Source: Candidatus Omnitrophota bacterium (GTDB taxonomy: Bacteria > Omnitrophota > Omnitrophia > Omnitrophales > Aquincolibacteriaceae). Taken from it: 64,000 bases of DNA. Each line of letters starts with the position of its first letter. Position 1 is the first letter of the stretch. Where the stretch lies: positions 15,674 to 79,673 of the forward strand of contig JAKLFP010000002.1 in assembly GCA_022711115.1 (NCBI GenBank), written 5' to 3'. Made by a program: the position numbers and the translations under genes. Positions 6,101 through 35,258 of the stretch are shown here, in pieces. The notes beneath the pieces were generated by a model. That model saw only the letters and a list, made by a program, of their open reading frames with translations, made no database searches and had not been told where the DNA came from.

Positions 6101-9100
6101 CAGGTGTTCAGCCGTATTATGGATTCGTTTCTGGCACTGGGATTTTCAGAGCTACACCTGAATTTCAGCCAGATTCAAACCGTCCTTGCAAGTCCCAGCG
6201 ATCTGGAGGCCTTGAAGGCTCTCAGAAGCATCACCGGGACCGGGAATCCGGCCGTGGATACTTTCCTCGACGAACTCATCACCATCGTTGACCAGCCCAC
6301 CCTTGGGCAATTGCGGGAACTTCAAAGACATTTTGTCGGCGTCCCTCCTCCTGCGCTGACTGATCTGCTTCTCCTGCTTCATTTGACGAGCGCTGCCGAG
6401 CTCGCGCCCGGCGTCGTGCAGCTTCCCCTGACCGTGCCTTTACCCGGCACGAACATAAGCACCATCATGGTTTCCGAGGCCATGCTGGCCCGCATCGCGG
6501 CCAATTTCGAAATCAATCTCACGGACTTGACCGTGGACCAATTGGCGGAAGCGCTCTTCAACGTCAATAATATTCCTCCCACAGCCATGGCCGATCTTGA
6601 GAAGAACATCGCGAACTTCGTGCGGGCCATGGCGGTCCAGACCGGAAAGCCGCAGCCCGTTTTCCCGGACCAAGCCACGCTTGTCCGCGTCTATTTGGCC
6701 AGGGAGCTCCTGCTCGCCATCCGGACAGAGACCGGGGCGCCGATTTCCACCAGTCTTCTCAAGCAGGTATTCGTGCAATTTGGATTGATGAATTTGGACC
6801 TCCAGCTTTTTATCCAGCGCGAGCTGGGCCTGACTCCGGTCGCGGATGTCTCGGGCTTTTTAAGCACCATGACCCGCAACAATTCCATGACCCAGGGTCT
6901 CAACCGGCTTCTTGCCGCGGAGGATACCTTGGTGAATCGACTGGCGTTTGTTGACGCGCTAGGAATTCCGAGGAATTCAGCGCTGGTCGGCGACATCCCA
7001 ACCTTACCGCAGGAGATCAAGGCTTTAGCGCTTCAATGCCTTACGGCCTTAAGCAATATGCCGGAGGGCGCTATCGGGGTCCTTAATTTTGAACGGCTCG
7101 TGTCCAATCTGCTCTGGCGTAACTCACAGCCTGCGGCCGTTCAGAACTATCTTGGAAGCCTTACGGTCTATGAGCTTTCCCAGCTGACACAAACGCAGAG
7201 AGATAATCTTGTAATGCAATTAACTTTTCTGATGGGTCAAGAGCCTAGTGTCCAAGCGCCTATCCTTTCGCGATTGAGTGCCCTTGAAATCGCGGGCATG
7301 ACCAGTCAGGAGATGACGGACTTTGCTGTCCGGATCCAAAGCCTTGACGGTTATCAAACGACGATGCGCCTGATTGTCGCAAATAGGCTGGCCGGCAAAG
7401 ATAATCTGCTGGAGGGGATTTCAATCGATCCAGCTGAGCAGAACTTGTGGAACACGTTCCACCCTGTATTGAAAGCGATGTCCATCAAATCGATCCGCGA
7501 TATCGCGGAGGTTTTTTCTACGGTGACCGCCCGGTCTGTAGCCCGGAACGGATTTAACGCTGAAGCATTCTTCAAGATGCTCATGGTGAAAGCAATGCTG
7601 CTTCAGATTTCTCCCAGCCACGGACTGGGCACCCTCACCGAATTCGAGGTTTTGGAAAATGTTACCGTGCTTTTGAGCGATTCAACAAACTCTCTGGGTC
7701 AGGTCTTCAGGAATTTGGATGTTGTGATCAGTATGGTGGGTCAGCTGACCACCGACGACCTCGCAAGGATGACTCAGGAGCAAATGCGGAATCTGATTGT
7801 TAATCTTTTTGCCAAGGACGGACTGGACAATTTGGCGGCTCACGACAGCCTATGGCCTGTTCTGATCCAGATCCTGAAAGGGAACTATGCCAGTCAAATC
7901 GACACCCAGCTGAATGCGCTTAAGACCTTCTATGACGCGTTTAAAAACAACCAAGAGGTCATGGTCCGGATGTCCCAGCTGGGCCAAGATGCTGCGGCCG
8001 CATTTTTGAACAACATTTTGCTGATCCAAACCGACACTAATCTGGTGCCCCAACTCCTTGATGTGATCCTGCTTACCAATCTGGGAGACAGCGTCAGTCA
8101 AATTACGCAGGCTGGAAACGGATTTCAGGTCACGATGGCAAGCGGGCAGATCCGGTTTGTGAAAGCCGATGGCGCGCTCAATATCCCGAACCAGATCGAT
8201 CTGGGCAACGGATATTCGCTGGCGCAAACTACTTCCAGTCCGGAAGGCCCAAGCACCTACACCATCTCCTCATCAAATGGTATTCCGATTGGAACTCTTA
8301 CGGTTTCAAGCGGGGAGCATCCGGCCATCACACTTAATATTACACTGGGTGGAAACAACGTTCCCGTGACGATTGACGGGGATCTGTCAAGGCTTCAGAC
8401 CACCACCCAAAACGGGAATCTTGTTGTGATCATTCAGTCCGGGTCGGAGATGCGGCGGATCACGCTGGGGCAGAATGGCCAGCAAGTGGTTGAAAATTTT
8501 GATCTCTCTGAAACCGTCACGGAAGCGCCGATGACCCTGCCGAATGAGCTGACTTTTTCTATCGATGCAGATAATATTTTTAGACTGCAGAGCGGTAGTT
8601 TGAGCTTCACCGTGGACGGTCATGAATATGAGATGGAGTTTGAAGGCGGCGTGCTTGCAGAGACCATCCAATTCAATGGGGAAGGGGAACTGGTTTTCAT
8701 GGATGCGCAGGGAGACCGGCATCAGGTGAATGCCCTGGCTGGAGGAAATTTTGTCGAGACCGTGCACCAGGTTTCAGGCGGGATCCGGACGGTGGTGCGC
8801 AATCATACCGGCGCTCCTGTGCAAACCATTGACGGTGTCACGAACGTGACACACACGGCAACCGGTGTGACGGTGGTCGGTCAAAATGCGGTGACGCTCA
8901 CAATCAGCGCCGATTCCAATTCCATGACAATCCATGTCTCCGGGCCGGTCGGGGTACCCGGGCCGGCCGTTCCGCTGGTTGCTTCGAATCTCATGCTTTC
9001 AAACGAAGGAATCGTGATGGGGCTTTCCGAAGACCGCTCCACGCTGTGGATTTCGGCGGGCGGACAAAGCTTTTCCGTGAATACCTCCACGCAGATCATA

Positions 9101-29264: not shown

Positions 29265-31310
29265 TTACCAATCTTTTTCCACAAGCGGCTGATTTTTGTT
29301 AACGGGTGGGCGTCGAAGATTTTGAAGCTCTTTTTCCGATTCTTTGAGAGCATCCAGAAGGTTCAGGGCGTTTTCCTTGCTCATTTGTCCTTGCAGGGGC
29401 TGGCTTTGCCGGGCTTGGCGTTTTTCCTGATCCGGTTTTTCCTCTCCTTGCTGTGCCTGCTTCATTTGTTCCTGTTGCTCCCGCTCCTTTTGTTCCTGCT
29501 CTTTCTGCTGCTGGGACTGTTGTTTCTGATCTTTTTGTTGCTCATTTTGCTGGTCTTGACCTTGCGACGGCTCTTTTTCCTGACCTTGCTGGTCTTGATC
29601 CTTGGACTGCTGCGATGGCTGTTCGTCTTGATTTTGGTTTTCTTGCTGTTGATCTTGACCCTGGCTCTGATCCTGCTTATCCTGCTGGCCCTGTCCCTGG
29701 TTTTCTTTATTCTGCTGATCTTGGCCTTGCTGCTGATTCTGCTTATTCTGCTGGCCCTGTCCCTGGTTTTCTTTATTCTTCTGACCCTGTCCTTGCTGCT
29801 GATCCTGTTTGTTTTGCTGGGAGTTTTGCTGCTGAGGCTGTTTTTTCTGATTTTCCTTTTTTCGTTCCTGGTCTTTTTTCTCAAACTTGCTCTTCTGTTT
29901 TTGAAGGAATTCCAGGTTGTATTTGGCATCTTTGTCCGTGGGTTCTAGTTCGAGGACTTTTTTATAGGACTCGATCGCTTTTTCGAAATTTCCAAGTCTG
30001 TATTGCGTGTTCCCGTAGTTATAAAGAGCTTGCGTTTTCAATTTCGGATCTTGAGTCTTTGCCGCGGAACTTTCCAGGTCCTTTGCGGATTCCTGGTATG
30101 AATTTACTTTATAAAGCGTGGTCCCGAGATTGTAGAGGACTTCCGGGGCATCGGGGTTTTTGACCTGAACTTTGCGGTAAGATTCTAGCGCCGATTGAAA
30201 ACGTTTATTCTCAAAATCGATATTGCCCTTTTTGACGGTATCTTGGGACGTTTCCAGAAAGCCTGAGAAGAGGATAAAAGAGATCAAGCAGGTCAAAAGG
30301 GACGTTCCTCGGCGGTCTCGCCGGCGCAACAGCATTTCAACGGCAAGGAGAATGAAAACGATGACAAGAAATCCTTGGTATTGGTCTTCTTTTTCTACAA
30401 TCATTTTTTCGGCGAATTGCTGCTCGCCCCATCCGCGAATATGTTTGAGAATAAATTCAGTCTCTTTTTCGCCAGGGGTTCCCCGCATATAAATTCCTCC
30501 GGTTTCCTTGGCAATCCGTTCAAGCAAGGGCTGGTTGAGTCTGCTGATAACCATTTGGCCGCTTCGGTCTTTTTTGAAACCAGCCCTCTCCCCTTTCTCG
30601 TTTTTCAAAGGAATAGGCTCACCCTCCGGAGAACCGAGACCGATGGTGTAGATTCTAACGTTGGCCCGTTTGGCTTCCTCAATCGCTTGATCGATCCCGC
30701 CTTCCTGATCTTCTCCATCCGTAAAAAGGATTATGACCTTATATTTGAGCTCCTTTTGCGGAAAGGATTGGATGGCATCATGAATGGACCTGCTCAGTGC
30801 GGTTCCGGGATCCGGAATAAAACCGACTTGCACTGCATCGAGAAACAACAAAAATGCGGCATGATCCAGTGTCAACGGTGTCTGAAGAAAGCCGGAACCG
30901 GCAAAAGTCACCATCCCGACGCGGTCGCCGTGGAGATTTTGCACAAAAGATTCGATCTCAAATTTGGCTTTTCCCAAACGATTCGGCTTAATGTCCTCGG
31001 CAAGCATACTGAGAGAGGTATCGACCATGAAGATCAGGTCAACACCCTTGCGCTGAAGGCTCTTTTTCTCGTCGCCCCATTGGGGCCTCGCAAGCGCCAA
31101 CACCATAAAGAGCACCGCAAGTGTTATCAAAAGGGTGCGGGTCAGCCCTTCCGCGCTCCGGTAACCTTCCATTAATTTCTGCAACAATGCTTTTTCCTGG
31201 ATCAGGCGTTGCAATCTTTTTTGCCATAGCTTTTGGGATGCCATGAAAAGTATTAAAACTGCCGGCACCAGCCACAAATAAAAGAAATACTCCGGTTTAA
31301 AAAATTGCAT
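29265..31310 (-). CDS. batB: BatB-like von Willebrand factor A protein fused to TPR repeats, with a C-terminal Gln-rich low-complexity tail
   Basis: N-terminal TM helix, vWA motif 'DLIFMVDTSLSMLAEDIKPNR...VGMVTFAGSGF', TPR-like 'YNLGTTLYKVNSYQESAKDL...YNYGNTQYRLGNFEKAIESYKKVLELEP', then a ~170-aa poly-Q/N/K tail. Confidence 0.8.
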   Translation of the reverse strand: MQFFKPEYFFYLWLVPAVLILFMASQKLWQKRLQRLIQEKALLQKLMEGYRSAEGLTRTLLITLAVLFMVLALARPQWGDEKKSLQRKGVDLIFMVDTSLSMLAEDIKPNRLGKAKFEIESFVQNLHGDRVGMVTFAGSGFLQTPLTLDHAAFLLFLDAVQVGFIPDPGTALSRSIHDAIQSFPQKELKYKVIILFTDGEDQEGGIDQAIEEAKRANVRIYTIGLGSPEGEPIPLKNEKGERAGFKKDRSGQMVISRLNQPLLERIAKETGGIYMRGTPGEKETEFILKHIRGWGEQQFAEKMIVEKEDQYQGFLVIVFILLAVEMLLRRRDRRGTSLLTCLISFILFSGFLETSQDTVKKGNIDFENKRFQSALESYRKVQVKNPDAPEVLYNLGTTLYKVNSYQESAKDLESSAAKTQDPKLKTQALYNYGNTQYRLGNFEKAIESYKKVLELEPTDKDAKYNLEFLQKQKSKFEKKDQERKKENQKKQPQQQNSQQNKQDQQQGQGQKNKENQGQGQQNKQNQQQGQDQQNKENQGQGQQDKQDQSQGQDQQQENQNQDEQPSQQSKDQDQQGQEKEPSQGQDQQNEQQKDQKQQSQQQKEQEQKEREQQEQMKQAQQGEEKPDQEKRQARQSQPLQGQMSKENALNLLDALKESEKELQNLRRPPVNKNQPLVEKDW
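29671..29803. repeat. Near-identical ~66-bp tandem coding repeat (x2) encoding the poly-Q tail of BatB
   Basis: '...ctgctggccctgtccctggttttctttattct...' occurs twice in tandem at 29671-29737 and 29738-29803. Confidence 0.7.
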
Positions 31311-31486
31311 CAGGGCACCTGACTTTCTATAAAATAAAAAATCGGGAAGTCAGTGTAGCCCTGAGGGTCCATTGGGAAAATAAAGATATCCATCAGGGCA
31401 CCTGACTTTCTATAAAATAAAAAATCGGGAAGTCAGTGTAGCCCTGAGGGTCCATTGGGAAAATAAAGATATCCATCAGGGCACCT
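31308..31486. repeat. Perfect 83-bp tandem direct repeat (2 full copies plus 13 bp of a third) in the batA-batB junction; each unit carries an imperfect stem-loop
   Basis: Unit 'catcagggcacctgactttctataaaataaaaaatcgggaagtcagtgtagccctgagggtccattgggaaaataaagatatc' sits at 31308-31390 and 31391-31473, then 'catcagggcacct' at 31474-31486. Inverted-repeat arms are 'cagggcacctgactt' and 'aagtcagtgtagccctg'. Confidence 0.9.
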
Positions 31487-32456
31487 TCAAAAGAACGGTT
31501 CTTTTCAAGAAAATTTCAAACAGGAACAGGATGAGCGCCGGGATCAAAAAAAACGCAAATAATTCATTGTAGCTGCGGTACTCCTTGACCTTGACCTCGC
31601 TTTTCTCCAGCTTATTGATCTTTTCATAGATTTCTGAAAGAGCTGCCGAATCGCGAGCACGGAAAAAAAGCCCACCGGTGATATCCGCAATACGCTTCAA
31701 AACCGTTTCATCCACATCGACAGTGACCTGCACATACCTTCTTCCGAAAAGCGGGTCATCAACCGGAAAAGGAACCAGCCCGCCTTTTCCAACGCCAATC
31801 GTGTAAGTTTTAATGCCGAAACTTTTAGCGAGTTCCGCCGCCGTAATAGGGTCAATGTTTCCCGCATTATTCTCACCATCCGTAATTAAAATGATGACTT
31901 TGCTTTTGGCATCGCTGTCTCTTAAACGATTCACCGCCGTAGCAATCCCCATGCCAATAGCCGTTCCATCGTCGATCATACCAACCCGGATGTCTTTAAT
32001 GAGCTGGATAAGGATGTTGTAATCCATAGTGAGAGGACATTGCGTGAACGCTTTTTTAGCAAAGACAACAAGCCCGATGCGGTCAGATTCTCTACCTTGA
32101 ATAAATTTGATGGCCTCTTGTTTGGCAACAAAGACACGGTTTTCCGGCTGAAAATCTTCGGCGAGCATGGAGCCTGAGAGATCGAGCGCAATCATAATAT
32201 CCACGCCGTGCGTTTGGACTTCTTTATCGCTGGAGACATTCGCCGGTCTCGCCAATGCGGTAATCAGAAGCAGAAATACCGCGGTTCGCAGGAATGGCAA
32301 CAATCCGAAGAGAAACATGCGCCATGTCACGGGACGGTTTTTGACCAGATCGAAAGAAGAGAATGCCAGCTCAAGTTTCTCGCGTCGCTTGGCCCATACC
32401 AGGAACAATGGAACGAGTAGCAAGAGGAGAAAAAACGCGGGGCTCCTAAACTCCAT
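31476..32456 (-). CDS. batA: BatA-like von Willebrand factor A membrane protein. The ORF track runs to 32627; the likely real start is the internal Met 'MEFRSPAFFLLLLL' at 32456.
   Basis: N-terminal TM helices and vWA motif 'DIMIALDLSGSMLAEDFQPENR...IGLVVFAKKAFTQCPLT'. Starting at 32456 reduces the overlap with the upstream gene to 11 nt. Confidence 0.8.
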   Translation of the reverse strand: MEFRSPAFFLLLLLVPLFLVWAKRREKLELAFSSFDLVKNRPVTWRMFLFGLLPFLRTAVFLLLITALARPANVSSDKEVQTHGVDIMIALDLSGSMLAEDFQPENRVFVAKQEAIKFIQGRESDRIGLVVFAKKAFTQCPLTMDYNILIQLIKDIRVGMIDDGTAIGMGIATAVNRLRDSDAKSKVIILITDGENNAGNIDPITAAELAKSFGIKTYTIGVGKGGLVPFPVDDPLFGRRYVQVTVDVDETVLKRIADITGGLFFRARDSAALSEIYEKINKLEKSEVKVKEYRSYNELFAFFLIPALILFLFEIFLKRTVLLKVP

Positions 32457-33393
32457 GGGAAGCCTCCTCATGGACTGGCTGTGGTACAAGTGCTGATTCC
32501 CTGATGATTTCCTCAGACTTTTTGTTGATTTGAAGGATTTCGGGTGCTGTCGGGATCCATTTGGCGAACTTTGCAAGGTCCGCAGCCTCAAGGACATATT
32601 GGATCTTTTGAAAAAGTGCCGAATCAAGGTGTTGCGGTCTTAAGGCGCGAAGGATTTCGAGGGTGGTTGATTCTACGGCCAGGATCGTATAGCGTCTTTC
32701 GAAATAGGTTTTTAAAATCTCCGAAAGTTTCAAATAATAAATCTTGATAAAACCTCGCTTAAAAAGATCAGACTCAAAAAGTTCATTCAAGCGCATCAAG
32801 GCCTCTTCTTCTGCAGTAAGCGGGGATGCTTCCGTATGAGCTAAAGCCTTCTTTTTTCGGAGTATTTTATAAATCCAAAACCCGATCAGTCCCAAAGCAA
32901 TGACCGCGATTGGGAAAAAGATTTTTTTGAGATGCAAAGGAAGCAACACGACCGATTTGACGTCCCGAATATCCTCCTTGGGGTCCCCCTCCGCAATACT
33001 TTTGACCGTGAGAAAAAGTTTCTCGGTTTGAATCGTCTTGACGGGCTGACCGTCTTTATGGTATTGAATGACGACCGGATCAAGGATGAATTCCCCTAAA
33101 CGGTAGGTTGTGAGTATGAATCTGCGTCCTGTCATCACCTGGCCTTTGTTTTTCGAATGGAGATCTTCGACTTTTTTAATCTCAAGGATGTCCGAGGCCG
33201 GGGCGGGAATGCTGGAATGAATCTGGATGTCAGGAGCATGTTCAATAGTGACGGTGTAGGTAACCGGATCGCCGATCGTCAAAAAAGCCTTGTCAACCTC
33301 CGATTTTACGCGAATATCATCCGCCGTCGCTGAAAAAACGGGCGGGACGGCAAAACAGCACAAAACAAATAAAAGAAAAGAGACTTTTTTCAT
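32446..33393 (-). CDS. DUF4381-like membrane protein of the Bat operon (signal peptide, ectodomain, single TM, cytoplasmic tail)
   Basis: 'MKKVSFLLFVLCCFAVPPVFSA', a TM helix 'IFFPIAVIALGLIGFWIY', and its position between DUF58 and batA. Confidence 0.6.
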   Translation of the reverse strand: MKKVSFLLFVLCCFAVPPVFSATADDIRVKSEVDKAFLTIGDPVTYTVTIEHAPDIQIHSSIPAPASDILEIKKVEDLHSKNKGQVMTGRRFILTTYRLGEFILDPVVIQYHKDGQPVKTIQTEKLFLTVKSIAEGDPKEDIRDVKSVVLLPLHLKKIFFPIAVIALGLIGFWIYKILRKKKALAHTEASPLTAEEEALMRLNELFESDLFKRGFIKIYYLKLSEILKTYFERRYTILAVESTTLEILRALRPQHLDSALFQKIQYVLEAADLAKFAKWIPTAPEILQINKKSEEIIRESALVPQPVHEEASHGV

Positions 33394-34262
33394 TTTCTCT
33401 CGCGGCCTTTGAAAAATTTAAACAGCGGCTCGACATAAGAAACATTCGAAGGGATGTCGATGCTATCGATTTGGAGGCGTTTGAAGAGTTTTTCCAGCGC
33501 CGATTGACGTGCTTCAGCGGCTTTCCGAAACCGTTCCAGGAATTCTGAAGAGCTTGTGTCTACAAGAATTGTTTTCCCGCTTTCCTGATCCATCAGCTCC
33601 ACCAGTCCGACTGAGGGGAAATTCTGTTCCAGAGGGTCCCGGAGATGAATCGCAATGACGTCGTGCTTTTGGCTGAGGATTTTCAGGGCTTTTTCATAAC
33701 CCTCATCCATGAAGTCTGAAATAAAAAAAATCACTGAAGTTCGAGTAAGAACCCGGTAAAGATATTCCATGGCGGCCGCAAGGTGCGTTTTTCTCTTCTG
33801 GGGCTGGTAACCTAGAATCTCACGAATCACGCGAAGGGCGTGGTTCCTCCCCTTTTTGACGGGGATGAATTTTTCGACATCCTCCGTGGCAATGAGAAGC
33901 CCGGTTTTGTCGTTATTTTTAACCGCGGAGAAGGCGAGAATGGCCGTGATCTCGGCTGCAATTTCAGACTTCAGCTTGGTCGAAGATCCAAAATACTGGG
34001 AGCCGGACATATCCACCGCAAAGATGACTGTCAGCTCACGAGTTTCGACGAACTTTTTGACAAAAGCGTGCTGGGATCTTGCCGTCACATTCCAGTCAAT
34101 GGTCCGTATGTCGTCGCCCGGCACATATTCGCGGACGTCGGCGAATTCGATACCCTGGCCTTTGAAAACAGATTCGTATTCCCCTCCGAAGAGATCATTC
34201 ACCAGGCGATTTGTCCGAATTTCGATCTTCCGGACTTTTCTGAGAAGCGCGGCTGGGATCAT
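33390..34262 (-). CDS. DUF58 domain protein (partner of MoxR ATPases)
   Basis: Hallmark 'GQGIEFADVREYVPGDDIRTIDWNVTAR'. There is a 4-nt overlap with the downstream gene. Confidence 0.85.
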   Translation of the reverse strand: MIPAALLRKVRKIEIRTNRLVNDLFGGEYESVFKGQGIEFADVREYVPGDDIRTIDWNVTARSQHAFVKKFVETRELTVIFAVDMSGSQYFGSSTKLKSEIAAEITAILAFSAVKNNDKTGLLIATEDVEKFIPVKKGRNHALRVIREILGYQPQKRKTHLAAAMEYLYRVLTRTSVIFFISDFMDEGYEKALKILSQKHDVIAIHLRDPLEQNFPSVGLVELMDQESGKTILVDTSSSEFLERFRKAAEARQSALEKLFKRLQIDSIDIPSNVSYVEPLFKFFKGRERK

Positions 34263-34268
34263 GGAACT

Positions 34269-35258
34269 TTAGGGAACTTCGACTTGATCAAAGATTTTTT
34301 TGACGACGTCGTCCGAGGTCATATCTTCTGCCTCGGCTTCATAGGTGATCAAGACGCGATGGCGGAGAACATCCATGCCGATTTGTTTGACATCGTCCGG
34401 AGTGACATAGCCGCGGCCTTGGAGAAATGCATGGGCCTTGGATGCCAGGGTCAACATGATGCTCGCGCGCGGCGAGGCCCCGTACGAAATCAAAGGCTTC
34501 AGCTCTTCCAGTTTATAATCCTGGGGATTACGGGTTGCAAAGACAAGATCAAGAATGTAATCTTTGACCTTATCATCAATATAGATCTGGTTCATCAGCT
34601 GACGCAGTTCCATGATTTTATTGAGATTCATGACCGGAGAAACCTTGATCGCTCTTCCGGTGGACATGCGTTCCAGGATTTCTTTCTCCTCTTTTTTATT
34701 AGGGTAAGTGACCACGAGTTTCAGCATAAACCGGTCGACTTGCGCTTCGGGAAGCGGGTAAGTCCCCTCTTGTTCGATCGGGTTTTGAGTGGCGAGCACA
34801 AGAAACGGTACTGGCAAGGGAAATGTTTCATTGCCGATCGTGACCTGTCTTTCCTGCATGGCCTCCAGAAGCGCGCTTTGGACCTTGGAGGGTGCCCGGT
34901 TGATTTCATCAGCAAGGATGATATTTGTGAAAATAGGGCCCTTTTTGGTCGAAAAATTGCCATCTTTGGGGTTATAGACCAAAGTGCCAACCACGTCAGC
35001 AGGCAGAAGATCCGGAGTAAACTGGATTCTCTGAAAATGGGCCTCGATGGCCTGCGAAAGGGTTCTCACGGAAAGGGTTTTCGCGAGTCCCGGGACCCCT
35101 TCGATTAAGATATGGCCATCCGCAAGCAGGGCCATCAAAAGGCGATCGACAAGATATTGTTGCCCGACAATCACTTTTCCGATCTCCCGGGTAAGATCTT
35201 TAAGCGGTGCGCTGGCGTCGCGGATCTTTGCATTGACTTCCTGAATCGAACTGTCCAT
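34269..35258 (-). CDS. moxR: MoxR-family AAA+ ATPase
   Basis: 'ILIEGVPGLAKTLSVRTLSQAIEAHFQRIQFTPDLLPADVVGT' and 'IILADEINRAPSKVQSALLEAMQERQVTI'. Confidence 0.9.
   Translation of the reverse strand: MDSSIQEVNAKIRDASAPLKDLTREIGKVIVGQQYLVDRLLMALLADGHILIEGVPGLAKTLSVRTLSQAIEAHFQRIQFTPDLLPADVVGTLVYNPKDGNFSTKKGPIFTNIILADEINRAPSKVQSALLEAMQERQVTIGNETFPLPVPFLVLATQNPIEQEGTYPLPEAQVDRFMLKLVVTYPNKKEEKEILERMSTGRAIKVSPVMNLNKIMELRQLMNQIYIDDKVKDYILDLVFATRNPQDYKLEELKPLISYGASPRASIMLTLASKAHAFLQGRGYVTPDDVKQIGMDVLRHRVLITYEAEAEDMTSDDVVKKIFDQVEVP

Follow-up and report, generated by a model that had tools for sequence, protein, structure and literature searches.

Background

MIRUs occupy roughly 40 loci in M. tuberculosis, and REPs, which are linked to RAYT transposases, are untranslated elements of about 35 bp with copy numbers in the hundreds. 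MIRUs are mobile, insert at start codons and contain an internal ORF that is coupled to the downstream gene (PMC12548453, PMC3184786); they are the named example of a mobile repeat that is harmless through its own translationally coupled ORF (PMC12548453). The MIRU-VNTR work of Supply et al. (1997, Mol Microbiol 26:991) is summarised in both sources (PMC12548453, PMC3184786), and the models of coupling, by RNA unfolding and by re-initiation, are reviewed in the former (PMC12548453).

Here we describe an 83-bp unit that is tandemly repeated between the batA- and batB-like genes of a Candidatus Omnitrophota bacterium, within a 64-kb stretch of DNA that was analyzed as a whole (the window). We consider it fairly probable that this unit represents a dispersed, copy-number-variable family of intercistronic elements, built to preserve coupling, in one Candidatus Omnitrophota clade.

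The likeness to MIRUs is one of functional class, in an unrelated phylum, and sequence homology is neither claimed nor expected. Both kinds of element are 40-100 bp in length, lie between the cistrons of operons, are often tandem and vary in copy number. In both, the ends of the ORF overlap the flanking stop and start codons, keeping coupling, a filled site is distinguished from an empty one by an insertion with short flanking direct repeats, and internal inverted repeats are present. The overlap is usually 1 nt (TGATG) in the Omnitrophota unit, compared to 4 nt in the MIRU, and the three junction types at which the unit was seen (one of them in the 64-kb window) are far below the number of MIRU loci. 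Unlike for MIRUs, the Omnitrophota target sites have 7-13 nt in common with the element's end, comparison among relatives proves that the frame is kept despite nested insertions, and the palindrome shows covariation.

Three other systems invite comparison. As in sequestered-start coupling (f1 VII-IX, rpmI-rplT and MS2 coat-lysis; PMC12548453), the upstream ribosome would have to open the Omnitrophota stem, but here the arrangement sits in a repeatable cassette instead of being fixed in two genes, and the mRNA-strand stem is less stable than that of the complementary strand. Like REP/BIME elements, the unit is an intercistronic palindromic repeat, sometimes tandem, that affects or possibly affects the relative expression of operon genes, and for both, the form that is handled may be a hairpin of single-stranded DNA with G·T pairs. 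It departs from REP/BIME in its length of 83 bp, its frame-constrained 27-codon ORF and its low copy number, and a Pfam scan found no transposase among the 20 window ORFs that it covered. The Rickettsia palindromic elements (RPE; Ogata et al. 2000, as listed in PMC3184786) are similar in being in-frame, stop-free palindromic insertions, which applies especially to the 84-nt nested element described below; RPEs insert into ordinary protein genes, whereas the host "gene" in Omnitrophota is the mini-ORF of an intercistronic element.

Results and discussion

Anatomy of the repeat array

The array is located between co-oriented genes of a moxR-DUF58-orf315-batA-batB operon on the minus strand. Genes for a MoxR ATPase (34269-35258), a DUF58 protein (33390-34262) and a 315-aa protein (32446-33393, overlapping the batA start by 11 nt) lie upstream in the operon. 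They are followed by the batA-like gene (31476-32456), which encodes 326 aa with a VWA domain and ends in ...LLKVP-TGA, and by the batB-like gene (29265-31310), which encodes 681 aa with VWA and TPR domains and a Q-rich tail. The batA-like gene was defined from the ORF list, the gene call and precomputed Pfam matches, namely PF07584 BatA (weak), PF00092 VWA and PF13519. The start of BatB, MQFFKPEYFF, is kept in all relatives. The window region belongs to the core chromosome and contains trp and his operons as well as recA.

Tandem Repeats Finder and an exact-match search placed the array at 31308-31486 (minus strand), where two complete 83-bp units (31391-31473 and 31308-31390) are accompanied by a 13-bp partial copy (31474-31486). 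With a period of 83, 2.2 copies (2.16), 100% matches, 0 indels and a score of 358, this bears out the perfect duplication with a 13-bp partial copy that was described in an earlier note on this DNA. The partial third copy corresponds to the end of batA itself, made up of the final three batA codons and the stop, then TG (AGGTGCCCTGATG). The array thus begins 8 nt ahead of the batA stop (TGA, 31478-31476) and reaches as far as the batB ATG (31310-31308). The 83-mer has two matches in the window at three or fewer mismatches, against 0 expected from shuffles, and no third unit was detected in the window by that search, by an nhmmer profile or by a calibrated covariance model with filters off.

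On the minus (coding) strand each unit amounts to exactly one 27-codon ORF, and the resulting gene chain, batA -> ORF27 -> ORF27 -> batB, has a TGATG stop/start overlap at all three boundaries. Mini-ORF 1 (31393-31476, minus; 27 codons and TGA, MDIFIFPMDPQGYTDFPIFYFIESQVP) takes the A of its ATG from the batA TGA, and its own TGA shares an A with the next ATG. Mini-ORF 2 (31310-31393, minus) is identical, with a 1-nt overlap between its TGA and the batB ATG. A Shine-Dalgarno-like AGGTG lies 5 nt upstream of the batB ATG (31316-31320, minus), with identical copies before mini-ORF 2 (31399-31403) and before mini-ORF 1 (31482-31486), the latter within batA, where the last codons, AAG GTG CCC TGA, carry the motif. 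Other genes of the bat operon have GGAGG or AAGGAG at the same distance from the start, in place of the AGGTG of the units. The batB ATG and leader had previously been seen to be duplicated; they are, but the copies turn out to be the starts of 27-codon ORFs under frame constraint, which link batA and batB in a chain. An origin of the unit from a junction-spanning tandem duplication (batB 5' end plus batA 3' end) is speculative; by eye, no clear resemblance was evident outside the shared 13-nt 3' block.

Frame maintenance in related species

At the same junction, related Omnitrophota species (BatA identity 75-86%) have 0, about 0.5, 1, 2 or at least 4 units, or enlarged units, and many of them have the direct TGATG overlap and no insert. 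The periods of filled batA-batB junctions are 41, 83, 86, 83+89, 167, 251, 443 and at least 4 x 83 nt. Enlarged units carry nested palindromic inserts, and in the 167-nt and longer classes a second, 84-nt palindromic element is nested in the unit. The empty site reads AAGGTGCCCTGATGCAA; at the filled site a 13-bp direct repeat is present. In a tree of BatA plus BatB, filled and empty junctions alternate among sister species, and diverged homologous units are present in more than 20 other species.

An unbroken chain of ORFs with overlapping stops and starts was found in 25 of 25 evaluable arrays, with overlaps of -1 or -4 nt and with ORFs of 13, 27, 28, 29, 31, 55, 83 and 147 aa. All length classes leave a remainder of 2 on division by 3, and stops are present in both other frames. 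In shuffled sequence, the probability that the frame is open is 0.27 for the 27-codon version, 0.044 for the 55-codon version and 0.009 for each of the 83- and 147-codon versions.

The palindrome

Each unit contains a palindrome on the minus strand, delimited by minimum free energy folding and covariation: unit 1 at 31393-31447 (5' arm 31430-31447, 3' arm 31393-31408) and unit 2 at 31310-31364 (5' arm 31347-31364, 3' arm 31310-31325). The 3' arm of unit 1 includes AGGTG and the TGA/ATG overlap, and the palindrome of unit 2 ends at the A common to the stop of mini-ORF 2 and the batB ATG. The fold of the unit has an energy of -22.7 kcal/mol (z = -3.46 vs. 200 shuffles, 0/200 of them equally stable). 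Across 19 units, compensatory double changes were observed in 6 of 18 pairs (17 cells), a level reached by 0 of 500 shuffles, and slid registers gave 0-1 compensatory pairs. One of the compensatory changes accompanies a switch of the stop codon from TGA to TAA. On the antisense strand the palindrome is more stable in 18 of the 19 units (mean 6.9 kcal/mol; 95.9% vs. 90.4% of cells paired), which argues against an mRNA hairpin as the optimized form. The inverted repeat with a U-rich loop that the earlier note had pointed out is thus real, but a stem-loop in the transcript is not clearly the form that has been selected.

By the criteria for MITEs, flanking direct repeats are present, but the partner of the 3' terminus in the inverted repeat is an internal segment, lying 28 nt in from the 5' end, and not the other terminus. 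The sole Rfam match at the junction was mir-651 (E = 0.14), a chance match far below the gathering score, and nothing relevant was found by Rfam on the junction loci of five relatives.

The palindrome could be the functional part and the ORF incidental. The unit would then be a REP/BIME-like hairpin that shields upstream batA mRNA against 3' exonucleases or that partially terminates or attenuates transcription, with copy number setting BatA:BatB at the RNA level. The significantly stable hairpin and its covarying arms are consistent with this, and REP elements are documented intercistronic regulators, going by the reference list of PMC3184786. A small 6-bp local hairpin, GTCAGG-TGC-CCTGAT, is moreover followed at the batB start by CAATTTTTT, the T-run of which lies in batB codons. 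We nevertheless find such a reading unlikely. It leaves unexplained why 25 of 25 arrays are in frame and free of stops despite inserts of up to 360 nt, and why ATG/stop overlaps and AGGTG are present in every unit. The main stem on the mRNA strand has a 21-nt loop, mismatches and no adjacent U-run, and the antisense folds better. Terminator-like matches are frequent in the region (18 found vs. 9.6 expected), and the match at the batB start, with its T-run, is of this common type and lends little weight to the intra-operon attenuator that had been proposed for the repeat.

Does the frame encode a peptide of use?

The units might alternatively encode a functional hydrophobic micropeptide of 27 aa that acts with the BatA and BatB membrane proteins, its gene being duplicated at this junction. 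The frame is open in all cases, conservation is fair in the C-terminal half (TDFPIFFLIES[QR]VP) and codon position 3 varies most. The entropies of the three codon positions at unpaired sites (0.48, 0.55 and 0.79) are mildly codon-like, with an excess at the third position, but they do not decide between selection on peptide and selection on nucleotides because stems and codons overlap. Versions of 55 aa are called as genes in public data; they have no Pfam domain, and a protein search with the 55-aa ORF found only 8 clusters among 5.8 billion proteins, all of the inspected ones at batA-batB. A functional micropeptide is also difficult to reconcile with the absence of the element from many close relatives, sister species included, with the toleration of a 14-aa deletion and of in-frame palindromic inserts of 28, 56 and 120 aa, and with poor conservation of the N-terminal half. 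The residues that are conserved map to the covarying stem and to the AGGTG-stop-start block, and a homologous unit also adjoins the unrelated genes murI and queC. Taken with these points, the micropeptide is very improbable.

Dispersal to other gene junctions

Homologous units are located between murI and queC at three loci in relatives (L088, L089 and L090) and between the gene for the 315-aa protein and batA at another (L021). The murI-queC sites came from a metagenome scan with the hairpin pattern, which yielded six loci, all in other species; as the window's own population was absent, the scan contributed no new copy-number alleles. Empty murI-queC sites read GTCAAAGTCCCATGAAAA and filled ones GTCAAAGTGCC[CTGATG...CAGGTGCC]ATGAAAA, and their comparison reveals an insertion flanked by an A(A/G)GTGCC direct repeat. 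The native C-terminus of MurI in the clade is [KQR][VI]P-stop, and the target sites therefore share the terminal sequence of the element. One MAG has its bat site filled and its murI-queC site empty.

Altogether three junction types are occupied in about 0.56 Mb of related DNA, and one locus in the 64-kb window. Dispersal is modest, with far fewer loci than the approximately 40 MIRU loci of M. tuberculosis. The earlier note had suggested a mobile or phase-variable element: the homologous units at murI-queC and between the 315-aa gene and batA agree with the former, but since the mini-ORFs chain batA to batB a change in copy number is frame-neutral and is not an on/off phase switch. That the unit might occur only here, at fixed copy number, is contradicted by varying copy number and by other occupied junctions in relatives, even though further copies are absent from the 64-kb window.

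These data also bear on whether the repeat is a plain, neutral local tandem duplication by replication slippage, with no element family and no selected property behind it. The copies are perfectly identical, the 13-bp flanking direct repeat could mediate slippage and the unit is found nowhere else in the 64-kb window. With diverged homologues in more than 20 species and at two other gene junctions, however, the unit long predates the duplication, and with its covarying arms and universally maintained frame a history of neutral slippage becomes highly improbable.

Copy-number alleles

Among five assemblies, two units are found in the window and in L001, L002 and L003, and one unit in L004, with flanks of the one- and two-unit alleles that are 100% identical over 8-14 kb; outside the array, all five agree completely across 9 kb. 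The recent duplication that had been proposed is supported by alleles of one and two copies in otherwise identical DNA and by a range from 0 to at least four units across species, which also show the array to be dynamic; the one-unit allele comes from a single assembly. The two-unit sequence is identical in two JGI assemblies and one SPAdes assembly, compared to one unit in a MEGAHIT assembly. Known from just one MEGAHIT contig, the one-unit allele could have arisen by collapse during assembly, although at 96 nt the internal repeat does not reach the k of 141. A short-read (Logan) contig stops 19 nt into the array. In the window, no repeat was found that accounts for the assembly breaks at 32617-32629 in four assemblies.

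As part of the explanation that we favor, and with the same fair probability, the two-copy array in the window is the most recent gain or loss event, with the one-copy allele coexisting in other samples; the duplication step itself was probably slippage. That the two-copy state or the one-copy variant is an assembly artefact is hardly credible: tandem repeats are mishandled by short-read assemblers, one Logan contig terminates within the array and a run of N lies inside the L016 array, but the same two-copy sequence was obtained in three independent assemblies from differing samples and assemblers, and the longest internal repeat (96 nt) is below typical read lengths.

A probable intercistronic element that preserves coupling

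As an element preserving coupling, the unit would supply an AGGTG, an ATG overlapping the preceding stop, a short stop-free frame and a TGA overlapping the next ATG, and its insertion into a coupled gene junction would leave coupling unbroken. Ribosomes ending batA would re-initiate at mini-ORF 1, then at mini-ORF 2 and then at batB. The inserted RNA would stay translated, polarity would be avoided and BatB synthesis would be tied to that of BatA. Both the translation of the mini-ORFs and this relay of ribosomes are suggested by the constraint on the sequence. The 3' arm of the palindrome is the AGGTG-CCC-TGATG block, which in mRNA would keep the next start inaccessible until the stem is opened by a ribosome arriving from upstream; as single-stranded DNA, the palindrome may serve duplication or movement. 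Units could be gained, lost scarlessly and multiplied via recombination or slippage between the 7-13-bp direct repeats (AGGTGCCCTGATG) found on either side of every unit. Because translational coupling is preserved, the element would be tolerated and perhaps tunes BatB. An effect of the units on the translation of batB is plausible, and copy number may alter BatB output.

A bolder version of this mechanism is offered tentatively, as we consider it possible but rather doubtful. In it the unit is a self-propagating "ribosome-relay cassette" that homes by microhomology to coupled junctions (upstream gene ...A(A/G)GTGCC-stop/ATG), is copied through its palindrome as single-stranded DNA and is harmless through an obligatory translated frame, its copy number (1 vs. 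2) quantitatively setting the BatA:BatB ratio.

Conclusions

For the uncultured lineage the batA-batB locus offers a VNTR marker for strain tracking, and it is a place where short-read assemblies break or collapse. The series of 0, 0.5, 1, 2 and at least 4 units, together with three sizes of nested inserts and a relay frame that is always preserved, is an unusually clean natural experiment. This frame-preserving series constitutes sequence-level evidence for selection on a translated bridge between coupled genes, and the different unit numbers are ready-made constructs for following the decay of coupling efficiency per relay step. If the cassette version holds true, the unit would be a heritable, frame-neutral rheostat of operon stoichiometry in a phylum without genetics. 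An independent, unrelated family in Omnitrophota would suggest that the coupled-ORF strategy is general and not a mycobacterial curiosity.

The repeat array consists of in-frame mini-ORFs

Tandem Repeats Finder placed an array of period 83 and 2.2 copies, with 100% matches and no indels, at window positions 31308-31486, between a batA-like gene (VWA domain; 31476-32456, minus strand) and a batB-like gene (VWA and TPR; 29265-31310, minus strand) of a moxR-DUF58-orf315-batA-batB operon. A search of the window for the 83-mer returned exactly two occurrences at up to 3 mismatches (0 expected), and the 3' end of batA (AAG GTG CCC TGA plus TG) accounts for the 13-bp partial third copy. The tandem duplication was thus accurately described in the earlier note, which overlooked that each unit corresponds, in the coding direction, to exactly one 27-codon ORF, ORF27 (MDIFIFPMDPQGYTDFPIFYFIESQVP). 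ORF27 overlaps both of its neighbours by a single A, which belongs to the preceding TGA and the ORF27 ATG at one end and to the ORF27 TGA and the next ATG at the other; because of these 1-nt overlaps the locus reads batA-TGATG-ORF27-TGATG-ORF27-TGATG-batB. AGGTG lies 5 nt before each ATG of the chain, GGAGG or AAGGAG being the motif at that distance in other genes of the operon. With a period of 83 (2 mod 3) and a 1-nt overlap, gain or loss of a unit leaves all reading frames intact.

Val-Pro-stop ends several upstream genes of coupled pairs, namely MoxR (...EVP), BatA (...KVP) and MurI (...KVP) (window 34269-34275 and 31476-31486; related loci L090 and L100-L103). The KVP codons AAG GTG CCC put a Shine-Dalgarno-like AAGGTG 5 nt upstream of the overlapping downstream ATG, and such a gene end may serve more generally for coupling across this lineage. 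Inside batB (29660-29820) a 66-bp unit is repeated imperfectly in tandem (2.5 copies, 87% identity) and encodes a Q/N/G/D-rich low-complexity tail.

Copy number differs among near-identical assemblies

BatA and BatB assign the window to Candidatus Omnitrophota, where the closest species representatives have 82% BatA identity, and the exact BatB protein is present on contigs of several independent assemblies. Two units were found in three of these (two from JGI, one from SPAdes), and one unit in a single MEGAHIT contig (L004), the one assembly from which the single-copy allele is known; a short Logan contig stops 19 nt into the array. Over the 8-14 kb compared, the JGI, SPAdes and MEGAHIT contigs match the window at 100% identity except for the 83-bp difference, so that copy number is the only difference detected among these near-clonal populations. 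The repeat is real, polymorphic and, as had been suggested from its perfect identity, recent.

Contigs of four independent assemblies (L002, L003, L004, L099) all end at window 32617-32629, within the 315-aa gene towards its 3' end, and no repeat accounting for this break was detectable within the window. Three of the four are ~48.2 kb long and cover batA, batB, yqeY and a giant gene. This giant ORF (113-28234, plus strand) spans 9,373 aa inside the window, whereas gene calls on the full contigs give 14,610-14,639 aa; since its size varies among assemblies, the gene is itself polymorphic for indels or repeats.

The batA-batB junction in relatives

The comparison of this junction covered representatives of ~45 Omnitrophota species as well as additional metagenome contigs (L handles). 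Many species have a direct TGATG overlap and no insert. Other loci carry a 41-nt version with a 13-aa ORF (L021, L023), one 83-nt unit (L012, L014, L009, L024, L085), 86- or 89-nt variants (L010, L017b), two units (L017), or at least four (L016, an apparent four to five units interrupted by a run of N at about 7062-7160). Longer classes measure 167 nt (83 plus an 84-nt nested insert; L005, L007, L008, L058, L086, L087, L091-L096), 251 nt (two nested inserts; L022) and 443 nt (a 360-nt GC-rich nested insert; L049).

The length of every class is 2 mod 3, stops are present in alternative frames, and a chain-walking script found an unbroken relay from upstream stop to downstream start in 25 of 25 evaluable arrays. 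In composition-matched shuffles the probability of an open frame was 0.27, 0.044, 0.009 and 0.009 for the 27-, 55-, 83- and 147-codon versions. Mainly on the evidence of these unbroken in-frame arrays and shuffle probabilities, translation through the insert appears to be under selection. The 55-aa ORFs are annotated as hypothetical proteins only. In a BatA+BatB neighbour-joining tree, sister species alternate between filled and empty junctions, a pattern that would be expected if units were lost time and again, leaving no scar, between the 13-bp direct repeats.

A covarying palindrome in each unit

The stem-loop with a U-rich loop that the earlier note reported in each unit was recovered by folding (-22.7 kcal/mol, z = -3.46). 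The loop measures 21 nt, and the stem has 16 bp with interruptions, its 3' arm being formed by the AGGTG-CCC-TGA(TG) block. Most relatives have a longer stem in which CAUCAGG pairs with CCUGAUG, next start codon included. In an alignment of 19 distinct units and 18 stem pairs, compensatory double substitutions occur in 6 of the 18 pairs (17 cells); none of 500 column shuffles matched this, and slid registers gave 0-1 such pairs. In L021 the stop codon TGA has become TAA, matched in the opposite arm by CAUCAGG to CAUUAGG. This covariation argues that the palindrome is under selection.

In 18 of the 19 units (window 31310-31447 and related units) the antisense strand forms the more stable palindrome, the difference averaging 6.9 kcal/mol, with 90.4% of cells paired on the mRNA strand vs. 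95.9% on the complement. The non-Watson-Crick cells are mostly A·C on the mRNA strand, hence G·U on the complement, where they lengthen the helix into the region that is loop on the mRNA strand. The selected form may be an mRNA hairpin, a single-stranded DNA hairpin or a deliberately weakened mRNA stem.

The 84-nt insert of the 167-nt class lies within the 5' arm of the unit's hairpin and is a member of a second dispersed palindromic element family, with copies at L007 7022-7105, L088 4386-4457 and 4511-4584, L010 2136-2204, L090 3597-3669, and L022 2054-2128 and 7085-7167. A first hairpin with a T-rich loop and a variable yet always complementary stem is followed by a conserved GCCCCAATTTC-loop-GAAATTGATAAGTATTGGGAC. 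This element, which has no Rfam match, also occurs in ordinary intergenic DNA, e.g. just 3' of a tRNA, and resembles Rickettsia palindromic elements in staying in frame when nested. In the 443-nt version (L049 611-1054) the insert consists of nested palindromes, and one 147-codon frame is still open, ending ...ESQVP-TGATG.

Dispersal to other junctions

A metagenome scan and profile search located homologous units at two further junctions, between the glutamate racemase gene murI and queC (L088, L089, L090) and between the 315-aa gene and batA (L021), where overlaps of -1 or -4 nt again link the ORFs into relays. In relatives, murI-queC sites without a unit have the sequence GTCAAAGTCCCATGAAAA, and filled ones GTCAAAGTGCC[CTGATG...CAGGTGCC]ATGAAAA. 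The native MurI C-terminus is [KQR][VI]P-stop throughout the clade, and BatA is alike; as both match the end of the element, it is located where the upstream gene already ends alike, which suggests insertion guided by microhomology, or a target preference. One MAG has a filled bat site and an empty murI-queC site. Dispersal is limited: no further copy was found elsewhere in the 64-kb window, and 0.56 Mb of related loci yielded no other junction type.

Relation to known elements and possible role

The unit is unlike REP elements, being longer, low in copy number and, judging by its conserved frame, probably translated. The unit is weakly terminator-like and matches no Rfam family. Of the systems described, mycobacterial MIRUs come closest. 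These are intercistronic units of 40-100 bp that often occur in tandem and in varying numbers; their ORFs overlap the stop and start of the flanking genes, and they are thought to be mobile, inserting at start codons with coupling kept (PMC12548453; PMC3184786). The Omnitrophota element fits the functional definition of a MIRU but is much less dispersed. The repeat appears to be one allele of a family of translated, MIRU-like intercistronic elements that is, by our searches, so far undescribed in Omnitrophota; those of the literature gave nothing specific.

Such a cassette would preserve translational coupling across an insertion. Ribosomes would terminate at each Pro-TGA and re-initiate at the overlapping ATG with its own AGGTG, and the stem would tie each start to the ribosome arriving from upstream. 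Both steps match the RNA-unfolding and re-initiation models of coupling reviewed in PMC12548453. A translated insert would also avoid Rho-type polarity (PMC12548453). Each added relay step may lower efficiency, and copy number could therefore tune BatB relative to BatA.
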